A DNA stretch of 64,000 nt from an uncultured Mycoplasmatota bacterium (GTDB lineage Bacteria; Bacillota_I; Bacilli_A; RF39; UBA660): positions 8,660 to 72,659 of the forward strand of contig CAOJYR010000003.1 in NCBI GenBank assembly GCA_948465965.1, in the 5' to 3' direction. Below the pieces are notes generated by a model. That model was not told the DNA's origin and made no database searches. It saw only the letters and a program-made list of their open reading frames with translations. This document shows positions 2,811-30,922 of the stretch, in pieces. A program made the position numbers and the translations under genes. Every line of letters begins with the position of its first letter. Position 1 is the stretch's first letter.

Positions 2811-3851
2811 CTATAAATACCATAATTTTTTGTTATTTTTTCTAACCTCTTTAATGATTCCACCGCCCAGGCATTCTTCCTTATTGTATAGGGCACATAC
2901 TTGTCCTGGAGTGACACTTTTTACACCTGTTGGATATTTTATAAGCATCTCTTTATTTTCTAAAAATTCTACTGTTACTTTTACTTCTTGTTGATGATAT
3001 CTAAATTTGGCAGTACAATCTTTTATTTTTTTATCACTCAAATAATTTACTTTCTCTAAAATACAAGCATCAGATAATAAGCTATCATCTTCTCCTATTG
3101 TAATATATAAAATATTTTTCTCTATGTCTTTTCCTACTACAAATGTTCTGTCTTTTGTTCCTCCTATATCTAGACCTCTTCTTTGCCCTATTGTATAGTA
3201 AGATAATCCTTTATGTGTTCCTATTTTTTCTTTTGTTTTTATATCTATTATGTCACCTTCATTTACTCCGAGTTCTGGACTCATATATTCTTTAAAAGTC
3301 TTCGTTATAAAACACACGTCTGTAGAGTCTTTCTTATTGGCATTGTCTAATTTATACTGCTTAGCTATTTTTCTTACTTTTTCCTTCTCGACTTTTTCTA
3401 ACGGGAATAGTATTCTGGGTAACCAATCTTTTTTTATTTCGCAAAGAAAATAGGTTTGGTCTTTATTTAAATCAGCACTTTTATATAATTTATTATTCTT
3501 AACTTTTGCATAATGCCCCGTTGCCATATAATCACAATTTAGTTTAATCATCTGATCATATAGAAATTTTAGTTTGACGTTTTTATTACACATGACACAT
3601 GGATTAGGGGTAATTCCCTTTTTATAATCTTCTATAAATTTATCTACTACTTTTTCTTTAAATTCTTTTTTATAGTCAACTATGTAATGTTTAATACCTA
3701 ATTTTTTGCAGACTGCAATTGCATCAGTTGCAGCAAAATCTTCAGCAAATTTAAATGTTACCCCAATCACTTCATATCCTTGTTCTTTTAAAAGGGCTGC
3801 CGCAACAGATGAATCTACTCCTCCACTCATGCCAACTACTACTTTTTTCAT
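2811..3851 (-). CDS. mnmA: tRNA 2-thiouridine(34) synthase MnmA (TrmU)
   Basis: MKKVVVGMSGGVDSSVAAALLKEQGYEVIGVTF contains the PP-loop SGGxDS motif. The catalytic-Cys region NPCVMCN and a conserved C-terminal domain are present. Start trimmed to the ATG preceded by a GGAGTGGTG SD (ORF track starts 33 nt upstream). Confidence 0.9.
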   Translation of the reverse strand: MKKVVVGMSGGVDSSVAAALLKEQGYEVIGVTFKFAEDFAATDAIAVCKKLGIKHYIVDYKKEFKEKVVDKFIEDYKKGITPNPCVMCNKNVKLKFLYDQMIKLNCDYMATGHYAKVKNNKLYKSADLNKDQTYFLCEIKKDWLPRILFPLEKVEKEKVRKIAKQYKLDNANKKDSTDVCFITKTFKEYMSPELGVNEGDIIDIKTKEKIGTHKGLSYYTIGQRRGLDIGGTKDRTFVVGKDIEKNILYITIGEDDSLLSDACILEKVNYLSDKKIKDCTAKFRYHQQEVKVTVEFLENKEMLIKYPTGVKSVTPGQVCALYNKEECLGGGIIKEVRKNNKKLWYL

Positions 3852-3864
3852 ATCACCACTCCAA

Positions 3865-4719
3865 TTATTCTTTAGAAAATTCACATATTACTTCATAAAT
3901 ATTTAGGATATTTTCTTCTTTTTCAGCATTTTTATAATACTCTTTGATTATTTCTTTCATTATATCATTTTTTTTCGATGAGGTTAACTTTCTCTTATAA
4001 ATTCTATCTATCTTTTTACATACTAAGTGAATACTGTCTATATCATCTATTAACTTTTTAGAGTTTACTTGCATAATTCCTTGCTTTGTTTTTTTATTTG
4101 TAAACTTAAATTTAGTTGTATCTATTTTTCTAAGTATCAAGGGTCTATTATAGTTTTCATAGATCATTATAGAATAGATTAGGTTTGTTAGATTTTTGTT
4201 TTCTAAATCTATCTCTTCCTTATATCTGCTTTTGAACTTAGCATAATTTATGACTATATATTCCTCATTATCTAATACTTTCCTCTTAACCTTTTCTTCA
4301 CTTAGATTTGTCTTATCCTTAAAGAAGTTATACAAGAATAAAATGATAATTGTCCATATCACTATTCTTAATTCACTATTTTTAGGAAAAATATAATCCA
4401 TTCTATTAATAAAATAAGTATTCACTATATAGGAAATTATTATTAAAACGAAATAGAAAGTTATATTCTTTTTATCCTCTTTAAAAAAGTCTTCTGTCAA
4501 AAAATAGGTAGTATAAATCATATCAATAATAAATTCAAAAACTACCACTATAAAAATATTTTTGTTATTTGGATAAAATCCGGCAAGTAAGATTAATAAA
4601 ATAATAGTAAAAATAATTGTATTCATATCATTTAATAAATATTTTCGTTTTAAGTAATTTATACAAATTAAAAGTAAAATACTAAGTAGAAAGTAATATA
4701 TAAGCGTTGATAGAGTCAT
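3865..4719 (-). CDS. Hypothetical polytopic membrane protein (about 5 TM) with a charged cytoplasmic C-terminal domain
   Basis: Hydrophobic segments over the first ~150 aa and a K/E-rich C-terminal tail. No family recognised. Confidence 0.45.
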   Translation of the reverse strand: MTLSTLIYYFLLSILLLICINYLKRKYLLNDMNTIIFTIILLILLAGFYPNNKNIFIVVVFEFIIDMIYTTYFLTEDFFKEDKKNITFYFVLIIISYIVNTYFINRMDYIFPKNSELRIVIWTIIILFLYNFFKDKTNLSEEKVKRKVLDNEEYIVINYAKFKSRYKEEIDLENKNLTNLIYSIMIYENYNRPLILRKIDTTKFKFTNKKTKQGIMQVNSKKLIDDIDSIHLVCKKIDRIYKRKLTSSKKNDIMKEIIKEYYKNAEKEENILNIYEVICEFSKE

Positions 4720-4790
4720 GTAATCTCCTCCTAATTAGTGCTTATTATATACTTTTTCTTAATATTTTACAATAGTTTTGTTCTTATCAT

Positions 4791-6020
4791 TTATTTTTTA
4801 GGCGTTCCCTTTTTCTTAACTAAACTTTTTCCTGTTACTGCTTCTACTACTGGAGAGTTCAATAATTTATCATATTGTTCTAATTCACTTCCAATAAATT
4901 TATCATCTATTACTACATCTTCTCCTAATTCAGGTTCTTTTTCATGACTTAATTCATTCTTTTGTAATTTTTTCATGAAGTTATCCATAACTTCTTTTCC
5001 GTCCGACATTTTAGATGTTTCAGTTATTTTTTGTTTATCTTTTTCTAATTGTAATTTTATAGCGGCGGTATCATTTATTACTTGTTCAAGTTCAAGATCA
5101 AATCTTTCTATATTGTTATTTTCTATTTTCATTTTTAGTTCTGTGTTGTTTGTAAAATCATCAAGAGCATTTTCTCCTAAACTTTTATTTATATTTCTAA
5201 ATGCTTTTGTCTCATCCTTTTGTTTTTTTATTCCATAACTAGCTCCTGTAACACCGCCAATTATTCCTGGAGCAAAAAGCCCTAATAGTCCTCCTGGTAA
5301 TGTTGCCCCTGCCTGTATAGTCATTATAGATGCCATATTATATAGGAAAAAGAGAATCATAAATCCAAAGGCAGTATTAGTTATTACGTGGTCAAATCTT
5401 TCAACTTTACTTCTTACTTTCCAAAAGGTATCTTTTAAAGTTTTTTGAGTTGCTAGAGTGTCAATTTCTTTATGTTTTTCTTCCAGTAATTGTTGGGTAC
5501 CTTTAATATCTTTTTCTATTTCTTCTTTTGTTCTATTATCCTCTTTTTCTGCAATTTTATAGTTGTCAGAAAGAGAGTTTATTAGGGCCTCATCTGCAGT
5601 TATTCTTTCAAGAGTCTTATCAATTATTTTATTGTAGCTTTCCAATTTTTCTTTTTCAATTTTATATTTTGTTTGTTCCTCAAACTTTTCTTTTTCTGTT
5701 TTTGCTTTTGAAAATATTTCTAGTTTCTCTTTTATTTTATCTTTTTTATTTATTAATGTTTCTGCTGTTACTCCAATTGCTGTGGGAACTATCAATGAAA
5801 GTGATGGAATTAATTCTAAGGGAATAACTTTTGAAAGTGTTATTTCCATCATAGAAAATGCAATGGGAACATATGCAAACGTTGATAAAGCAAATGATAG
5901 TGTTATCTTATTACCGAGAGTGTTAACTCTTAAAATATCTATCTTTTTATCTAATTTATCTATTTTTTCTATATTTTTATTTTTTTCATCTATTAATTGC
6001 TGTTTTATGTCTTTTTTCAT
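4791..6020 (-). CDS. Hypothetical coiled-coil membrane protein. It has a central TM hairpin and a glycine-zipper segment (GATLPGGLLGLFAPGIIGGVTGASYGI).
   Basis: 409-aa ORF with long K/E-rich helices flanking two hydrophobic segments and a GxxxG-rich stretch. Confidence 0.45.
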   Translation of the reverse strand: MKKDIKQQLIDEKNKNIEKIDKLDKKIDILRVNTLGNKITLSFALSTFAYVPIAFSMMEITLSKVIPLELIPSLSLIVPTAIGVTAETLINKKDKIKEKLEIFSKAKTEKEKFEEQTKYKIEKEKLESYNKIIDKTLERITADEALINSLSDNYKIAEKEDNRTKEEIEKDIKGTQQLLEEKHKEIDTLATQKTLKDTFWKVRSKVERFDHVITNTAFGFMILFFLYNMASIMTIQAGATLPGGLLGLFAPGIIGGVTGASYGIKKQKDETKAFRNINKSLGENALDDFTNNTELKMKIENNNIERFDLELEQVINDTAAIKLQLEKDKQKITETSKMSDGKEVMDNFMKKLQKNELSHEKEPELGEDVVIDDKFIGSELEQYDKLLNSPVVEAVTGKSLVKKKGTPKK

Positions 6021-25546: not shown

Positions 25547-25575
25547 TTAGCAAAAAAAGGCTCTTTTGAGCCATT
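25547..25575 (-). terminator. Rho-independent terminator of thrS
   Basis: Minus strand reads GGCTCAAAAGAGCC followed by TTTTTTTGC. Confidence 0.7.
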
Positions 25576-27337
25576 ATTTTCTTCTACTTTTGTTTTTTAT
25601 TTCTTCTGTAATCAATTTAACAAATTCATCTACTTTTAGAGTTGTTGTTTCCTTTTGACCATGAAGGCGATAACTTACTGTATTCTCTTCTTTTTCTTTA
25701 TCGCCAAGAATCAAAGTATATGGCACTTTAGAAGTTTGCGCCTCACGAAGACGATAGCCTAACTTTTCATTACGATCATCTAATTCTGCCCTTATTCCAA
25801 CTTCTTTTAATTTATTTGTTACCTCTTTGGCATAGTCGCCTTGAAATTCAGGATTAACTGGAATCGTTTTTACTTGTATTGGCGATAGCCAGGTTGGAAG
25901 TGCACCTTTTGTTTCTTCTATAATAAAGGCTGTAAATCTGTCGAATGTTCCAAATATCGCTCTATGTAGGACAACAGGTATTTGTTTTTCTCCTTTGTTG
26001 TCAATATATGATAAATCAAATTTTCTTGGTAATAGGAAATCTAGTTGACATGTTGAAAGTGTTACTTCTGGTCCCACAGCTGGTTTTACTTCAACGTCTA
26101 GTTTTGGCCCATAGAATGCAGCCTCCCCTTCAGCTTCGAAATAATCTACTCCTAAATCATTTAATACCCCTCTTAATTTATTTTCAGCATTATCCCACAT
26201 TTCATCATCATCAAAATATTTTTCTTTATCTTCTTTATCACGTAGAGATAATCTAAATTTATAATCTTTAATACCAAAATCTTTATAAACATCTAAAATT
26301 AGACTTACTACACGTTTAAATTCTTCACCGATTTGCTCTGGAGTTACAAATAAATGGGCATCATTTTGGCACATACAACGTACTCTTTCTAATCCTTTAA
26401 CCGCTCCACTTGCTTCATATCTAAAGTCTGTTGCGAACTCTCCTATTCTTATTGGTAAATCGCGATAAGAATGCATTTTGTTTTTATATACTAACATATG
26501 ATGAGGACAATTCATTGGACGAAGAACAAATTCTTCTTCATCAACTTTCATCATTGGGAACATATTTTCTTTATAGTGATCCCAATGACCTGATGTTTTG
26601 TATAAATCCACTGTTCCAACACATGGAGTGTAGACATGAGAATAACCTAATTTTTGTTCCTTTTCATAAATATAATTTTCTAATTGTTTTCGGATAAGAG
26701 CACCATTTGGAAGCCATAAAGGCATACCTGAACCAACTAACTCATGGTTCATAAATAATTCTTGTTCGCGCCCTATTTTTCTATGATCACGCATTTTTGC
26801 CTCTTCTATTAATCTTAGATGCTCTTTAAGTTCTTCTTCTGTTTCATAGCAAACTCCATAGATACGTTGAAGCATTTTATTCTTAGCGTCACCTTTCCAA
26901 TAAGCACCACTTACTTTTAATAATTTAAAGTGTTTTAATTTTTTTACCGTGTCTAGATGTGGCCCACGACAAAGGTCAGTAAAATCTCCTTGACTATAGC
27001 AACTAATAATAGTTTCTTCTTCATTCATTCTAGAGATTAAATCTATTTTATATGGATCATCTTTAAATTTTTCTAAAGCTTGTTCTTTGGAGATTTCTTC
27101 TCTTACAATTCTTTTGCCATCTTTGGCTATTTTTTTCATTTCTTTTTCAATTTTCGGTAAGTCTTCTTCTGTTAAGGATGTATCTCCCAAATCTATATCA
27201 TAATAAAATCCTTCTTCTATTACTGGCCCTACCCAAAATAATGCATTTGGATACAGGTGTTTTACTGCTTGTGCTAGTAAGTGAGCACAAGAGTGGTTCA
27301 TTATACTTAATTGTTCATTTTCTTTAATATTTATCAT
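25574..27337 (-). CDS. thrS: Threonine--tRNA ligase, 587 aa. It lacks the N-terminal TGS domain and begins at the N2/editing domain.
   Basis: HSCAHLLAQAV opens the editing domain. Class II aaRS motifs and the anticodon-binding domain are present. AAGGAGGAAG SD upstream. Confidence 0.9.
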   Translation of the reverse strand: MINIKENEQLSIMNHSCAHLLAQAVKHLYPNALFWVGPVIEEGFYYDIDLGDTSLTEEDLPKIEKEMKKIAKDGKRIVREEISKEQALEKFKDDPYKIDLISRMNEEETIISCYSQGDFTDLCRGPHLDTVKKLKHFKLLKVSGAYWKGDAKNKMLQRIYGVCYETEEELKEHLRLIEEAKMRDHRKIGREQELFMNHELVGSGMPLWLPNGALIRKQLENYIYEKEQKLGYSHVYTPCVGTVDLYKTSGHWDHYKENMFPMMKVDEEEFVLRPMNCPHHMLVYKNKMHSYRDLPIRIGEFATDFRYEASGAVKGLERVRCMCQNDAHLFVTPEQIGEEFKRVVSLILDVYKDFGIKDYKFRLSLRDKEDKEKYFDDDEMWDNAENKLRGVLNDLGVDYFEAEGEAAFYGPKLDVEVKPAVGPEVTLSTCQLDFLLPRKFDLSYIDNKGEKQIPVVLHRAIFGTFDRFTAFIIEETKGALPTWLSPIQVKTIPVNPEFQGDYAKEVTNKLKEVGIRAELDDRNEKLGYRLREAQTSKVPYTLILGDKEKEENTVSYRLHGQKETTTLKVDEFVKLITEEIKNKSRRK

Positions 27338-27573
27338 TTTCTTCTTCCTCCTTGATTTTCTTGTTTTACCTCTTCGGCAATTACATTTTTTAATTCATTC
27401 CTTATTTGTAAGATTTCCTTTTTTATTAACTCCAATTCTTCTTTACTTTTTGTAGTAGCTTGTTTTAGATAAAGATTATGTAATTTATCTCTTAATTCTT
27501 TTTTAGTCATCTTTTTCCTCCTGGTTCCATTTAGATAACTTATAAATTTTTGTTTTTTCTTCACCAATGTCAC
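27334..27573 (-). CDS. Putative small basic coiled-coil protein (79 aa, or 58 aa from the internal Met). Its stop overlaps the thrS ATG (ATGA).
   Basis: The only evidence is the ORF and its translational coupling to thrS. It overlaps the upstream ORF by 71 nt. It may not be expressed. Confidence 0.25.
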   Translation of the reverse strand: MTLVKKKQKFISYLNGTRRKKMTKKELRDKLHNLYLKQATTKSKEELELIKKEILQIRNELKNVIAEEVKQENQGGRRK

Positions 27574-28072
27574 TACTGAACTTTACTTGCTCTGTTGGAA
27601 AAGGAATCACTTTTTTTACCTTTTCTTCAAAGATAAAGGAATCGTCTCCTTCTTTTTTATATAAATCAAAATCTCTTTCCTCTGTAATATCCAAATAGTC
27701 TTCTAGAAATTCGCAATATTTTTTTCGCGATTTCGACTGTATCGTTTGATTATTTATATTTAGTAAAATAGTAATGGCTTCTATTGATGATACTGTTTCT
27801 AAATATTTCTTTACTATGTCTGGTAGATTTTCATAATTTATAACTGGAAAACAAATAGAAAACTTATTAGCAATAGCTATTTCAAACAGTTCTTTAAGTG
27901 TTTGATTTTCTTCTTGTATCCATTTATACAACAAAAACGTAATGTTTTTATTATTCAGACGCTTTTTCATTTCATTTATAGCAAGATTATAGTTTATGAG
28001 GTTTTCACTTCTTAATAATGCTAATAAATATTGATCATTCATATTCTGTACTTTTATAGGTCTAATTTTCAT
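27503..28072 (-). CDS. Hypothetical protein (189 aa), the first gene after the T-box leader
   Basis: ATG with a TAGGAGAAAAAT SD placed directly after the T-box terminator. No family recognised. Confidence 0.45.
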   Translation of the reverse strand: MKIRPIKVQNMNDQYLLALLRSENLINYNLAINEMKKRLNNKNITFLLYKWIQEENQTLKELFEIAIANKFSICFPVINYENLPDIVKKYLETVSSIEAITILLNINNQTIQSKSRKKYCEFLEDYLDITEERDFDLYKKEGDDSFIFEEKVKKVIPFPTEQVKFSSDIGEEKTKIYKLSKWNQEEKDD

Positions 28073-28077
28073 ATTTT

Positions 28078-28335
28078 TCTCCTAACAAAAACTCCTAACT
28101 TACCATTCTATTTATATAATAGGTAAATTAGGAGTGCATATACACGGTACCATCCATAGTTTTTCTTAATTTATATAACGACATTAGCCGGAATTACTTT
28201 TCATAATTCTACTCGAAAGGTAGTAATAAATTAAGCTTTCATTCGTTTTCACCAACCACGAACTCTCTTTATCAAGTTATTAATTTATCTTGTCCTTTGT
28301 CAATGTATTTCAACAAATTAATCATAACATTAAAT
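28078..28335 (-). promoter_or_regulatory. T-box riboswitch leader, probably Thr-specific
   Basis: Minus-strand features, in order:
- promoter TTGACA-N17-ATAACT
- Stem I beginning AGAGAG
- ACUACC in the putative specifier region
- T-box sequence UAUGGAUGGUACCGUG (consensus GGGUGGNACCGCG)
- terminator CUCCUAAUUUACC...GGUAAGUUAGGAG followed by UUUUUGUU. Confidence 0.6.
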
Positions 28336-28368
28336 TTATTTTTTTTCAACTAGTATTATTTAAAATAT

Positions 28369-29091
28369 TTATTCATTTTTGTGTTGTATATCATATATTA
28401 ATTGTTTTATTTTTTCTTTATTACTGTTAGTTATTTCTGTATTTGTTTTATTCTCTATATCTATATAATAAGTTTGTTTTTCCTGTAGTTCTTTGTAGGC
28501 AGCATACCTTTTGTCAAATTCTTTCTTTGCTTTTTCATAATTTATTACGTCAAGTTTTAATCTAAGGTAAATATCACATACAATCTTTGTGTAAATTTCT
28601 TTGTGTTCTTTTATAAGAAGTAAATCTTTCATCATTTCTTCGAATTGGTAAGGCAGATGAAGTTCTCTTGTATTTTTTTGCGAGATGATTTCTTTTGGAA
28701 TTTCAACATCTGCTACTATGTCATAATATTCTCCATTCCTTTTGATACAATATATTTTTGTGTATCCATAATTTATAATTTTTCTTTCTTTATCATATCC
28801 AAAGTTATCTTTTTTTAAATTATTATCTGGTTTATACTCTATAGTTTCAAATTTATAAGCATTGTATGCTACTTGTTTTATGGGGCAAAAAGCATCACGT
28901 TCTTTTGGGACTAATTTTTTTGTTTTAACTAAAGCTGTATAGCTTTGAGGTGAATTACTATTATTGTGATTTAAAGAATGATACTCTTCACAAGTTAATT
29001 CTTTATTTTCATAAAGGCTAATTATAGTTTTATATGGTTCTCTTTCTATTAAAGATAATTCATAATATATTTCTTCATTATTATTTTCCAT
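28369..29091 (-). CDS. Hypothetical protein, 240 aa
   Basis: ORF co-oriented with its neighbours. No family recognised. Confidence 0.4.
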   Translation of the reverse strand: MENNNEEIYYELSLIEREPYKTIISLYENKELTCEEYHSLNHNNSNSPQSYTALVKTKKLVPKERDAFCPIKQVAYNAYKFETIEYKPDNNLKKDNFGYDKERKIINYGYTKIYCIKRNGEYYDIVADVEIPKEIISQKNTRELHLPYQFEEMMKDLLLIKEHKEIYTKIVCDIYLRLKLDVINYEKAKKEFDKRYAAYKELQEKQTYYIDIENKTNTEITNSNKEKIKQLIYDIQHKNE

Positions 29092-29113
29092 ATTTTTATC
29101 CCCTTTTATTTAC

Positions 29114-29908
29114 TTAACGACTCGTCCAAGATGATGGAACACTCATAACTGATTGTAGGCCATAGAATCCTTGATTTAGTCGTCTAATTCCATAATTGAA
29201 GAATCTACCTAAATCAGCACAATTGGAATCATTTTTATCAAATATGGCACAATCTACTACTGCTAGATGTAAGTGTGTTCCTGTTGCAATGCCTGTTCTT
29301 CCCATATAACCTAAATAATCATTTATGGTTACTTCTTTTCCAATATATAAATCTGGAGCATAACTTGATAGGTGAACATACTGCGATGTGTAGTTTGTTC
29401 CATTAATATTATGATTTACTGTTACTATTTTAGCTCCAGCTGAATCAGTATATATTCCTGATATTTTTCCATTGGCAATTGGATAAATTGCTTCGCTTGT
29501 ACCTCTAGGACTCGTTATATCTAGAGCGTAATGGGAGTAAGTTAAACCATTACTTATAGTACCCATTTCACATGGTAAGTACCAAATCCTTCTGTTTTCT
29601 ATATTTTCTGCTATAGAATCATTTTTGCTTGGAAGTAATATCTCTTTCGGTGCTTCTACAGATGTCATTTTTTGATAATTATTTATTACCTGGATAATGG
29701 GGTTTGCTTTTTCTACTTCTTTTTTTGTTGTTATATTTGCTGTAGCCATATCTTTAATATTAATATTTTCATAGGTGATTGTATAATTATTATTTTCTTG
29801 CTTCTCATACACACTATACATATTTATCCCACAAGAAATTAATATCAATGCTACTGATATTGTAATTAAACTCTTTCCTTTTAAAATATATAGATCTACC
29901 TGAGACAT
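29114..29908 (-). CDS. Membrane-anchored M23 (LytM-type) peptidoglycan endopeptidase
   Basis: N-terminal TM anchor. The C-terminal M23 domain has an intact HxH motif (GYMGRTGIATGTHLHLAV) and an upstream HxxxD-like segment. Confidence 0.7.
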   Translation of the reverse strand: MSQVDLYILKGKSLITISVALILISCGINMYSVYEKQENNNYTITYENINIKDMATANITTKKEVEKANPIIQVINNYQKMTSVEAPKEILLPSKNDSIAENIENRRIWYLPCEMGTISNGLTYSHYALDITSPRGTSEAIYPIANGKISGIYTDSAGAKIVTVNHNINGTNYTSQYVHLSSYAPDLYIGKEVTINDYLGYMGRTGIATGTHLHLAVVDCAIFDKNDSNCADLGRFFNYGIRRLNQGFYGLQSVMSVPSSWTSR

Positions 29909-29933
29909 AAAAACCCCCTTGAAACAGGGGTTA
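29908..29933 (-). terminator. Rho-independent terminator of dnaI, directly abutting the M23 peptidase start codon
   Basis: Minus strand reads AACCCCTGTTTCAAGGGGG-TTTTT-ATG. Confidence 0.65.
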
Positions 29934-29995
29934 TAATAACATATTCTTTTCTTTTTGTCAAAATTTCACTTTTCCTTTTATATACCTAATTTCTA

Positions 29996-30922
29996 TTAAT
30001 TTCTTCTATTTTTACTTACTAATTCCATTGTTTCTGTTAACTGTCTTATTCTTTCTATAATTCTTCTTGCCTTTACTTTATCAACACCTAATGTGGTTTG
30101 AGATAGAGAATGCTCTAGTTCTTCTAAAGTTAAATTTGAGGTAAAAAATGTAGGTAGATGTGACTCCATTCTATATTGCAAAATTGGACCTAGTATTTCA
30201 TCACGTGACCAATTACTACAATTTTCCGCTCCAATATCATCTAATAATAACAATGGTACTTTTTTTATGTAGTTAAACTTTTCGGTATAATCAGTCTGAA
30301 ATGATGCTTTTAGGTTTCTTAAAAACTCTGGATAATATATAAGGGCACATTTCACATTTTTTTTAGCCATCTCATTAAATAGTGAAGCTATTAAATATGT
30401 TTTTCCAGAGCCAAATGAACCTGTTAGATATATTCCTTTTGGTTTTTCTTCCTCATTATAATGATCTATGAATTCTTTAAAATATTTTATAATTGGAATA
30501 CGCATCTTATCATCTTTGTACATATTTTTAAATGATGCTTCTTTAATATCTTTAGGCATATCAAATAACTCAATATTTTCTTTATAACTGTTTGTTTTTA
30601 GTTCTTTTTGTTTTTTAGAGCAAGCAATATATGAAAATGTTATTAGGTTATTATCTTTCTCTGGGGTATATTTATATCCAAAGACTTTATTTTTACATGT
30701 AGAAAGACTTCTACACTTACTACAATTTTGCCATTCTATAAAACTATCTTCTAAGTTTGATGTATATTTCATCAGGATTTCCTCTTCCATATTTAGATCG
30801 TCTAAATAGCTTTTAAATTCTTTATTACTACAGGCATCTTGATAGTCATGAACAAGAGCAGTTCTATCTACTTTTTCAACTACATTATTTATATTTTTCA
30901 TTTTCATCACCCTACTCTTCAC
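29996..30922 (-). CDS. dnaI: Primosomal protein DnaI (replicative helicase loader)
   Basis: N-terminal zinc-binding Cys cluster (CSKCRSLSTCKN), Walker A GSFGSGKTYL and Walker B LLLDDIG. Size and architecture match DnaI. Confidence 0.8.
   Translation of the reverse strand: MKSRVMKMKNINNVVEKVDRTALVHDYQDACSNKEFKSYLDDLNMEEEILMKYTSNLEDSFIEWQNCSKCRSLSTCKNKVFGYKYTPEKDNNLITFSYIACSKKQKELKTNSYKENIELFDMPKDIKEASFKNMYKDDKMRIPIIKYFKEFIDHYNEEEKPKGIYLTGSFGSGKTYLIASLFNEMAKKNVKCALIYYPEFLRNLKASFQTDYTEKFNYIKKVPLLLLDDIGAENCSNWSRDEILGPILQYRMESHLPTFFTSNLTLEELEHSLSQTTLGVDKVKARRIIERIRQLTETMELVSKNRRN

Follow-up and report, generated by a model that had tools for sequence, protein, structure and literature searches.

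A T-box leader is usually taken to switch a synthetase, a transporter or a biosynthetic gene of the amino acid that it senses. In Bacillus subtilis, thrS and thrZ both have threonine-specific T-box leaders, which act by transcription attenuation. T-box operons with several cistrons have also been described; their cargo is related to the sensed amino acid and is constant among close relatives (PMC7913692, PMC2566862). Here we analyzed the thrS locus of an uncultured Mycoplasmatota bacterium, contained in a 64,000-nt stretch of 28.3% GC DNA (hereafter the window, positions 1–64000; contig CAOJYR010000003.1, positions 8,660 to 72,659). On its minus strand, from 28349 to 25559, a promoter, a T-box leader, an open reading frame (ORF) of 189 codons (ORF189), a smaller one (ORF58), thrS and a terminator follow one another in that order. 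Comparison with relatives indicates that the interval between T-box and thrS is a gene slot of fast turnover. The features of the locus are as follows; all lie on the minus strand.

28321..28349 (-): putative sigma-70-type promoter, with -35 TTGAAA at 28349-28344, a 17-nt spacer and an extended -10 TGnTATGAT at 28329-28321
28087..28312 (-): predicted Thr-specific T-box leader, with Stem I, specifier loop, Stem II, Stem IIA/B with CGUUA, and antiterminator/terminator
28263..28268 (-): Stem I AGAGAG element, aligning with AGAGA of the Rfam consensus and conserved over 40 leaders
28222..28224 (-): predicted specifier codon ACU (Thr), followed by A, within ACUACC at 28224-28219
28143..28157 (-): T-box core AUGGAUGGUACCGUG, with the UGGU bulge at 28152-28149; GGAUGGUACCG is invariant in 40 leaders
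28087..28134 (-): intrinsic terminator, a 13-bp stem with 5' arm CUCCUAAUUUACC and 3' arm GGUAAGUUAGGAG, then UUUUU
27503..28072 (-): ORF189, first cistron, 189 amino acids (aa), with an AGGAG Shine–Dalgarno (SD) element 7 nt upstream of its ATG; orphan all-alpha family A
27334..27510 (-): ORF58, 58 aa from ATG 27510 (79 aa if from GTG 27573), with a GGAGG SD; lysine/glutamate (K/E)-rich and helical
25574..27337 (-): thrS, threonyl-tRNA synthetase (ThrRS) of 587 aa, with editing (N2), catalytic and anticodon-binding domains; N1/TGS absent
25559..25572 (-): operon terminator after thrS, GGCUCAAAAGAGCC then UUUUUUU

The threonine T-box and its probable transcription unit

A preliminary description of this DNA had listed a T-box leader with promoter, AGAGAG, ACUACC, T-box sequence and terminator, and all of these are present at 28349..28087. 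It had named the Rfam model RF00230 as a check. The full model (1–219) matched at 28312..28127 on the minus strand with 74 bits and E = 6.9e-16 (cmscan), below the Rfam gathering score of 93 bits; for this reason the window-wide Rfam scan at gathering thresholds was empty. The shortfall is due to deletions in the Stem II loop and in Stem III, and no core element is missing. The orthologous leader in relatives L001 and L003 scores 95 bits, above the gathering score. Moreover, a profile of 40 orthologous leaders, aligned from related genomes, matched the window leader with E = 2e-41. Genuine T-boxes in these AT-rich genomes are thus missed at the gathering score, which suggests that riboswitch censuses at curated thresholds under-count in them.

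The distal loop of Stem I is GGUUGGUGAAAAC, and both the Stem I and the specifier loop that mark the T-box family are found. The same holds for the UGGN bulge and the alternative antiterminator and terminator: CACUCC is common to the 5' arm of the terminator and the 3' strand of the antiterminator. The terminator at 28134-28087 has a minimum free energy of -23.6 kcal/mol (fold z -3.3), and the terminator scan missed it because its loop exceeds 8 nt. By its predicted structure, the leader has every feature that defines the family, while lying under the curated Rfam score. The promoter matches the consensus at 10 of 12 positions and includes the TG. Such matches are not enriched over shuffles, and we assigned this one by its position: the T-box model match begins ~9 nt further downstream.

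All 40 leaders carry UUACU, without variation, in the 3' half of their specifier loop. Compensatory changes occur in 20 of the 24 pairs of the RNAalifold structure of these leaders, among them pairs in the two Stem I helices on either side of the specifier. The base following ACU varies (A in 31 leaders, C in 9). ACU (Thr) is the sole reading constant over all 40 leaders, and this points to a Thr-specific T-box, in line with the Thr-type first proposed. The predicted partner of the UGGU bulge is the ACCA end of an uncharged tRNA, which for this leader would be a tRNA-Thr with discriminator A. No tRNA-Thr gene was found in any relative locus retrieved, nor in the 64-kb window, which contains no tRNA gene.

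Specifier regions of a different kind were seen elsewhere. In L027 (4540-4560) the region reads AUUAAAAAACCUUUGAG, as against AUUACUACCUUUGAG in the close relative L030, with an A-run in place of ACU; this may reflect an error in assembly, decay of the leader or a switch of specifier (AAA = Lys). Leaders from Lachnospiraceae (L081, L083), which precede a thrS of the same type, are more distant and GC-richer, with the specifier ACC followed by A, and UGGA in the bulge.

Between leader and thrS lie 750 nt that hold the two ORFs, as the preliminary description had stated. A sensitive Rfam scan of 27300-28450 gave no second T-box, and no terminator-like site was seen from 28087 to 25572 in the terminator scan. 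The ATG of ORF58 overlaps the stop of ORF189 (ATGACTAA), and its own stop overlaps the thrS ATG (ATGA). Because there is one T-box, no intervening terminator and a series of overlapping cistrons, ORF189, ORF58 and thrS probably form a single, co-transcribed unit gated by the T-box.

The interval between T-box and thrS in related genomes

We surveyed 80 species loci anchored on ThrRS, using the profile built from the 40 leaders. A T-box was found upstream of thrS in 62 of them, from metagenome-assembled genomes (MAGs) of uncultured gut Bacilli/'Tenericutes'. For 14 of the 62, the profile match ends 32-60 nt before the thrS ATG, the canonical arrangement. Since the T-box sits directly on thrS in these 14 species, thrS is its ancestral target. 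For the other 48 (about three quarters), the match ends 184-1195 nt before the ATG, and every one of these gaps holds one or more same-strand ORFs that overlap the thrS start or end a few bases from it. The occupants are listed below.

20 loci: family B, an orphan family with the hallmark G.IILV.D..GN.APY.NP and no Pfam match
10 loci: metallo-beta-lactamase (MBL)-fold hydrolase (Lactamase_B_3), one of them (L007) also with family A upstream
2 species loci (L007, L020), besides the window and metagenome contigs L001, L004 and L005: family A
1 locus: Asp/Glu racemase
1 locus (L012): ribosomal-L29-like protein of 77 aa
remaining loci: singletons of 56-266 aa, belonging to no family

Family B amounts to only 23 clusters in a large database, and in 22/22 contexts it stands directly upstream of a thrS whose product lacks TGS. 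Families A and B are unrelated. A remote homology suggested by eye ('EGDD..IIPFP' versus 'IILV.D..APY.NP') was rejected, with an hhalign probability of 0.5%.

Loci with different types of occupant are intermingled on the ThrRS tree (neighbour-joining). Nearest to the window are L006, which has family B; L046, with a 68-aa orphan; L007, with A plus MBL; and L008 and L009, with MBL alone. At a ThrRS identity of ~86%, the ORF189 homologue is 81% identical in L004 versus 44% in L001. These data indicate that the T-box-to-thrS interval behaves as a fast-turnover gene slot within this uncultured clade of gut Bacilli. That the slot is variable in some three quarters of related species goes beyond the preliminary description, as does the clade-wide absence of TGS from ThrRS (see below).

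L007 carries two slot genes in tandem (3847-4987), a member of the ORF189 family and then an MBL-fold hydrolase; the slot can therefore take more than one cargo gene. In L012, the 77-aa ORF between T-box and thrS (4766-4999, plus strand) matches PF00831 with 31.2 bits against a cut-off of 24.5; it seems to be an L29-like paralogue under the control of the Thr T-box.

Upstream of the T-box, the dnaI...thrS synteny of Bacillus is retained, yet the genes between dnaI and the T-box are variable. They are an M23 peptidase and a 240-aa orphan in the window (28369-30922, minus strand), and an M23 peptidase, a HipA_C-like protein of 432 aa and a 223-aa orphan in L001 (1934-5725). L090 (8-2739) has an RNase with an RNB domain there, and L087 (1-2741) a 198-aa orphan.

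ORF189, ORF58 and a ThrRS without N1/TGS

The 189-aa ORF with a good SD, as first described, held up. In the family alignment, a helical domain of ~130 aa is followed by a low-complexity tail with the motifs LYxxEGDD, (I/V)IxFP and KIYxF(K/R). Homologues, which the preliminary description had proposed to look for, were found. A word-indexed search of 5.8 billion proteins gave only four matches, ORF189 itself included, and when 1.84 billion cluster representatives were searched exhaustively with a profile, the 33 clusters of family A emerged. Members are ~60-250 aa long (mostly 135-190 aa), come from different samples and are 25-82% identical. The ratio of nonsynonymous to synonymous substitution rates (dN/dS) for ORF189 is 0.11 versus L004, 0.16 versus L005 and 0.29 versus L001. 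An AlphaFold2 model made with a 32-sequence alignment has eight helices, with a mean predicted local distance difference test score (pLDDT) of 80.6 and values >90 over residues 10-130. Low dN/dS, a 33-cluster family and a confident all-alpha model show that ORF189 is a real, selectively maintained gene.

Codon statistics had also been proposed earlier. The GC content of ORF189 is higher at first than at second codon positions (GC1 > GC2), as in neighbouring genes, while GC3 (0.221) is not below GC2 (0.205). For ORF58 the pattern is coding-like, GC1 > GC2 > GC3. The suggestion of a new tRNA-Thr-responsive gene stands insofar as ORF189 is genuine, conserved and placed under a Thr T-box; its responsiveness is predicted.

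Neither ORF has a Pfam or NCBIfam match at E <= 1. ORF189 also has no match in PHROGs, and its sole PADLOC match, at 14.6 bits, is at chance level; on these searches a phage or defence origin was rejected. Foldseek comparison of the ORF189 model with the PDB gave no significant match (best E 0.4-0.7, to designed armadillo and alpha-Rep proteins, with TM <= 0.33), and the best match in BFVD (E 0.04) is not credible. When GTDB species genomes were scanned using the alignment of ORF189, no match was confirmed; the relatives in species-level genomes, L007 and L020, came to light only in the scan based on ThrRS. Threonine codons are unremarkable by direct count (8/189 in ORF189, 3/58 in ORF58), and the idea of a Thr leader peptide was rejected. 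We also rejected the idea that one of them is a split-off TGS domain: there is no TGS or other Pfam match, and the ORF189 model is all-alpha.

The order T-box, family A, TGS-less thrS recurs in 11 of the 12 distinct contexts examined. The most distant family member, P0037, is found just upstream of alaS (L088:282-755 and 811-1476, also L089). It has a terminator-like hairpin of its own, and the alaS product shares SAD/editing-domain ancestry with ThrRS. Its place beside alaS could be fortuitous, or could point to a connection with synthetases.

For ORF58, the preliminary description had given 79 aa. Its overlap with the thrS ATG was confirmed, and a start at ATG 27510, with the GGAGG SD, is more plausible than GTG 27573. 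The ORF is listed as a gene in public annotations. No homologue was found among the 5.8 billion proteins. The closest relative is L004, with 81% identity in ORF189; its counterpart DNA holds only a 15-codon ORF, and the matching DNA of L001 only a 12-codon ORF. The spacer in these two contigs measures 90-98 nt, with indels of ~55 and ~19 nt relative to the window. In L052, the small ORF that occupies the corresponding place matched ORF58 with 14.5 bits, too weak and too compositionally biased to count. The N-terminal MTKKELRD and the L012 ORF raised the idea of an L29 paralogue, which was rejected: ORF58 has no PF00831 match at E <= 1, and BLASTP against the L012 ORF gave E 14. ORF58 is lineage-specific, and its coding status is uncertain. 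Whatever the status of the protein, translation of ORF58 would bring ribosomes to the thrS start.

The ThrRS of 587 aa was confirmed as lacking TGS. It matches TIGR00418 of NCBIfam with 730.7 bits (cut-off 383.65) and, above the Pfam cut-offs, PF00587, PF03129 and PF07973 (class II core, anticodon-binding and tRNA_SAD); no Pfam match to TGS was seen. Residues 7-585 align with 67-644 of Staphylococcus aureus ThrRS (1nyq), the best PDB match (E 4.8e-239), and residues 2-585 with 60-637 of the Escherichia coli enzyme (1qf6). Both editing-site motifs, HxxxH (HSCAH) and CxxxH (CRGPH), are present. In 80/80 of the closest species-level relatives, ThrRS is 583-587 aa long and the match starts from residue 1. 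These relatives are uncultured gut/rumen MAGs of 'Tenericutes', Bacilli and Erysipelotrichaceae, Acholeplasma sp. CAG:878, Clostridium sp. CAG:433 and CAG:1193, and some Lachnospiraceae. Because all 80 share the same start and length, the absence of TGS is a trait of the clade, rather than a truncation in one genome or an assembly error. Among Lachnospiraceae (L060, L062, L063, L069, L071, L073 and L077-L085), which include the cultured Coprococcus hominis and Pseudobutyrivibrio, the TGS-less ThrRS is 63-69% identical to that of the window. The literature that we searched on TGS-less ThrRS and on T-box thrS operons in Tenericutes gave no account of such an arrangement.

Possible roles of the inserted genes and comparison with known systems

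The RNA element, the gene order, the overlaps, the conservation and the purifying selection are observed. The mechanism that we propose for them is taken from the established T-box model, as in B. subtilis tyrS and thrS. Uncharged tRNA-Thr would pair with the ACU specifier through its anticodon and with the UGGU bulge through its free ACCA end. The antiterminator would thereby be stabilized, so that polymerase would read through 28134-28087 and make the full ORF189-ORF58-thrS mRNA. With charged tRNA-Thr, the terminator would form and transcription would end before ORF189. The overlapping cistrons would then be translated as a coupled train with ThrRS last, and ORF189 would be induced together with ThrRS as charging of tRNA-Thr drops. 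Induction by uncharged tRNA-Thr is, in these terms, a prediction from the analysis.

We tentatively suggest for ORF189 an accessory role linked to ThrRS or to threonine limitation, one that is possible and that would be exerted by protein binding, through the helical-repeat-like domain and the short conserved motifs of the disordered tail. The suggestion draws on this domain, on the tail motifs, on the nearly exclusive linkage to thrS and on purifying selection. A bolder version, which we regard as unlikely, would make the slot a dedicated and quickly exchanging site. Families A and B would exist nowhere else, would be made only with uncharged tRNA-Thr and would be trans-acting partners of ThrRS or tRNA-Thr (for instance modulators, stabilizers or protectors of the N1-less synthetase), some of them, ORF58-type proteins included, born de novo from the leader spacer.

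Several points weigh against a T-box-gated operon whose first gene serves ThrRS. The window leader scores 74 bits, under the gathering score of 93. Read-through and co-transcription we infer from the sequence of an uncultured organism's operon, and an internal promoter may lie within ORF189 or ORF58, where promoter-like hexamers occur, though no more often than in shuffles. No fold or sequence match in Pfam, NCBIfam, Foldseek, PHROGs or PADLOC offers a functional lead for ORF189. P0037, the most distant member of family A, precedes alaS and has a terminator of its own and no T-box. Fourteen related species have the same TGS-less ThrRS and no insert; the occupants are patchy on the ThrRS tree; and unrelated ordinary enzymes, the MBL-fold hydrolase and the Asp/Glu racemase, are among them.

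The main rival to an accessory role, and one that we find quite possible, is that ORF189 and the other occupants are passengers, functionally unconnected to ThrRS. The slot would guarantee their transcription, and they would be swapped by homologous recombination of the conserved flanks, the T-box leader and the 5' end of thrS. The same regulatory architecture is compatible with this. The mutually unrelated occupants (A, B, MBL-fold, racemase, L29-like and many singletons) speak for such exchange, as do their patchiness, the empty slot of 14 species, the unequal divergence of the ORF189 homologues in L004 and L001 at similar ThrRS identity, and the variability of the dnaI-to-thrS interval upstream of the T-box as well. 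Yet A and B are nearly confined to the slot (11/12 and 22/22 contexts), unlike free-standing passengers, and both are under constraint. Most occupants overlap or abut the thrS start, hence their translation would affect that of thrS, and no mobile-element, phage or defence signature was seen with PHROGs and PADLOC.

More doubtful is gene birth in situ, which overlaps both the accessory and the passenger explanation. Here the transcribed spacer would repeatedly yield ORFs that couple ribosomes to thrS; A and B would have matured, and ORF58 and the singletons of 56-84 aa would be young proto-genes. Consistent with this are the restriction of the orphan families A and B to the T-box-thrS locus, the many small K/E-rich singleton ORFs in the slot, and ORF58, which lacks homologues and corresponds in L004 and L001 to the short spacer with its 15- and 12-codon ORFs. 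But ORF189 has a well-packed eight-helix domain, a confident model and low dN/dS, so that a de novo origin would be old and untraceable. The MBL, racemase and L29-like occupants are clearly imported old families, long chance ORFs are improbable in 28% GC DNA, and for neither A nor B was a non-coding precursor found.

We consider it improbable that the T-box governs ORF189 alone (with or without ORF58) and that thrS depends chiefly on a constitutive internal promoter for its expression. An essential thrS needs basal expression, and promoter-like hexamers occur inside ORF189 (28015-27986, 10/12) and near its 3' end (27573-27546). But such matches are at or below chance in this AT-rich DNA (13 found versus 17.9 expected from shuffles), and there is no other T-box or leader before thrS. 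The cistrons overlap, with no intergenic space, and in 14 related species this T-box is directly followed by thrS, which makes thrS the ancestral target. Finally, that ORF189 is a fortuitous ORF in a long non-coding leader, as the preliminary description had alternatively proposed, is hardly credible: it lacks a Pfam/NCBIfam family and an annotation name, but shows dN/dS of 0.11-0.16, a confident AlphaFold2 fold, a good SD, 189 open codons in 28% GC DNA and 33 clusters with conserved motifs, whose 25-82% identity and different samples set them apart from assembly duplicates.

Should the slot proteins act on ThrRS or tRNA-Thr, they would form a new class of accessory factors for a synthetase. 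Should they be passengers or newly born genes, the locus would offer a compact natural system for gene capture or creation within an essential, riboswitch-controlled operon. What is unusual in either case is T-box cargo that includes a conserved protein without known relatives, and the finding that 48/62 species hold interchangeable genes just upstream of an essential gene, including two orphan families that are all but confined to this position. No variable gene slot separating a T-box from a synthetase gene was described in the literature searched, of which coverage was incomplete.

Like the canonical ThrRS of E. coli (1qf6) and S. aureus (1nyq), the enzyme encoded here has the N2 editing domain, the class II core and the anticodon-binding domain; unlike them, it lacks the first ~60 residues (N1/TGS), as do its 80 closest relatives. 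ORF189 resembles armadillo (ARM)/HEAT-like scaffolds in that its model is an eight-helix stack whose top Foldseek matches are designed armadillo and alpha-Rep proteins. With no E < 0.4 or TM > 0.33, this is an architectural resemblance only and not membership.

Bacillus YtxC, which the preliminary description had offered as a possible identity, is an uncharacterized gene just upstream of thrS and downstream of dnaI, and the dnaI...thrS synteny is kept here. The resemblance ends at position: ORF189, ORF58 and the upstream 240-aa ORF have no Pfam match at E <= 1, YtxC (presumably PF08812) included, and none in NCBIfam, and the identity is not borne out. In Bacillus, moreover, ytxC lies, we assume, upstream of the T-box and not downstream.

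As in other multi-cistron T-box operons, several cistrons appear to be gated by one leader. But the first cistron is an orphan with no recognizable link to threonine, and the gene at this place changes among close relatives. The nearest likeness is with B. subtilis thrS and thrZ, which share with this locus a Thr specifier in the Stem I loop, a T-box with UGGN bulge, mutually exclusive antiterminator and terminator, and a ThrRS gene as the target of uncharged tRNA-Thr. In Bacillus, the leader abuts the synthetase gene, whereas 750 nt and two ORFs intervene here. The specifier is ACU here versus ACC in B. subtilis, and the specifier loop and Stem III are shortened, to which we ascribe the sub-gathering 74 bits. 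The switch and the synthetase are thus conventional; the cargo is unconventional and evolutionarily fluid, with two orphan families.

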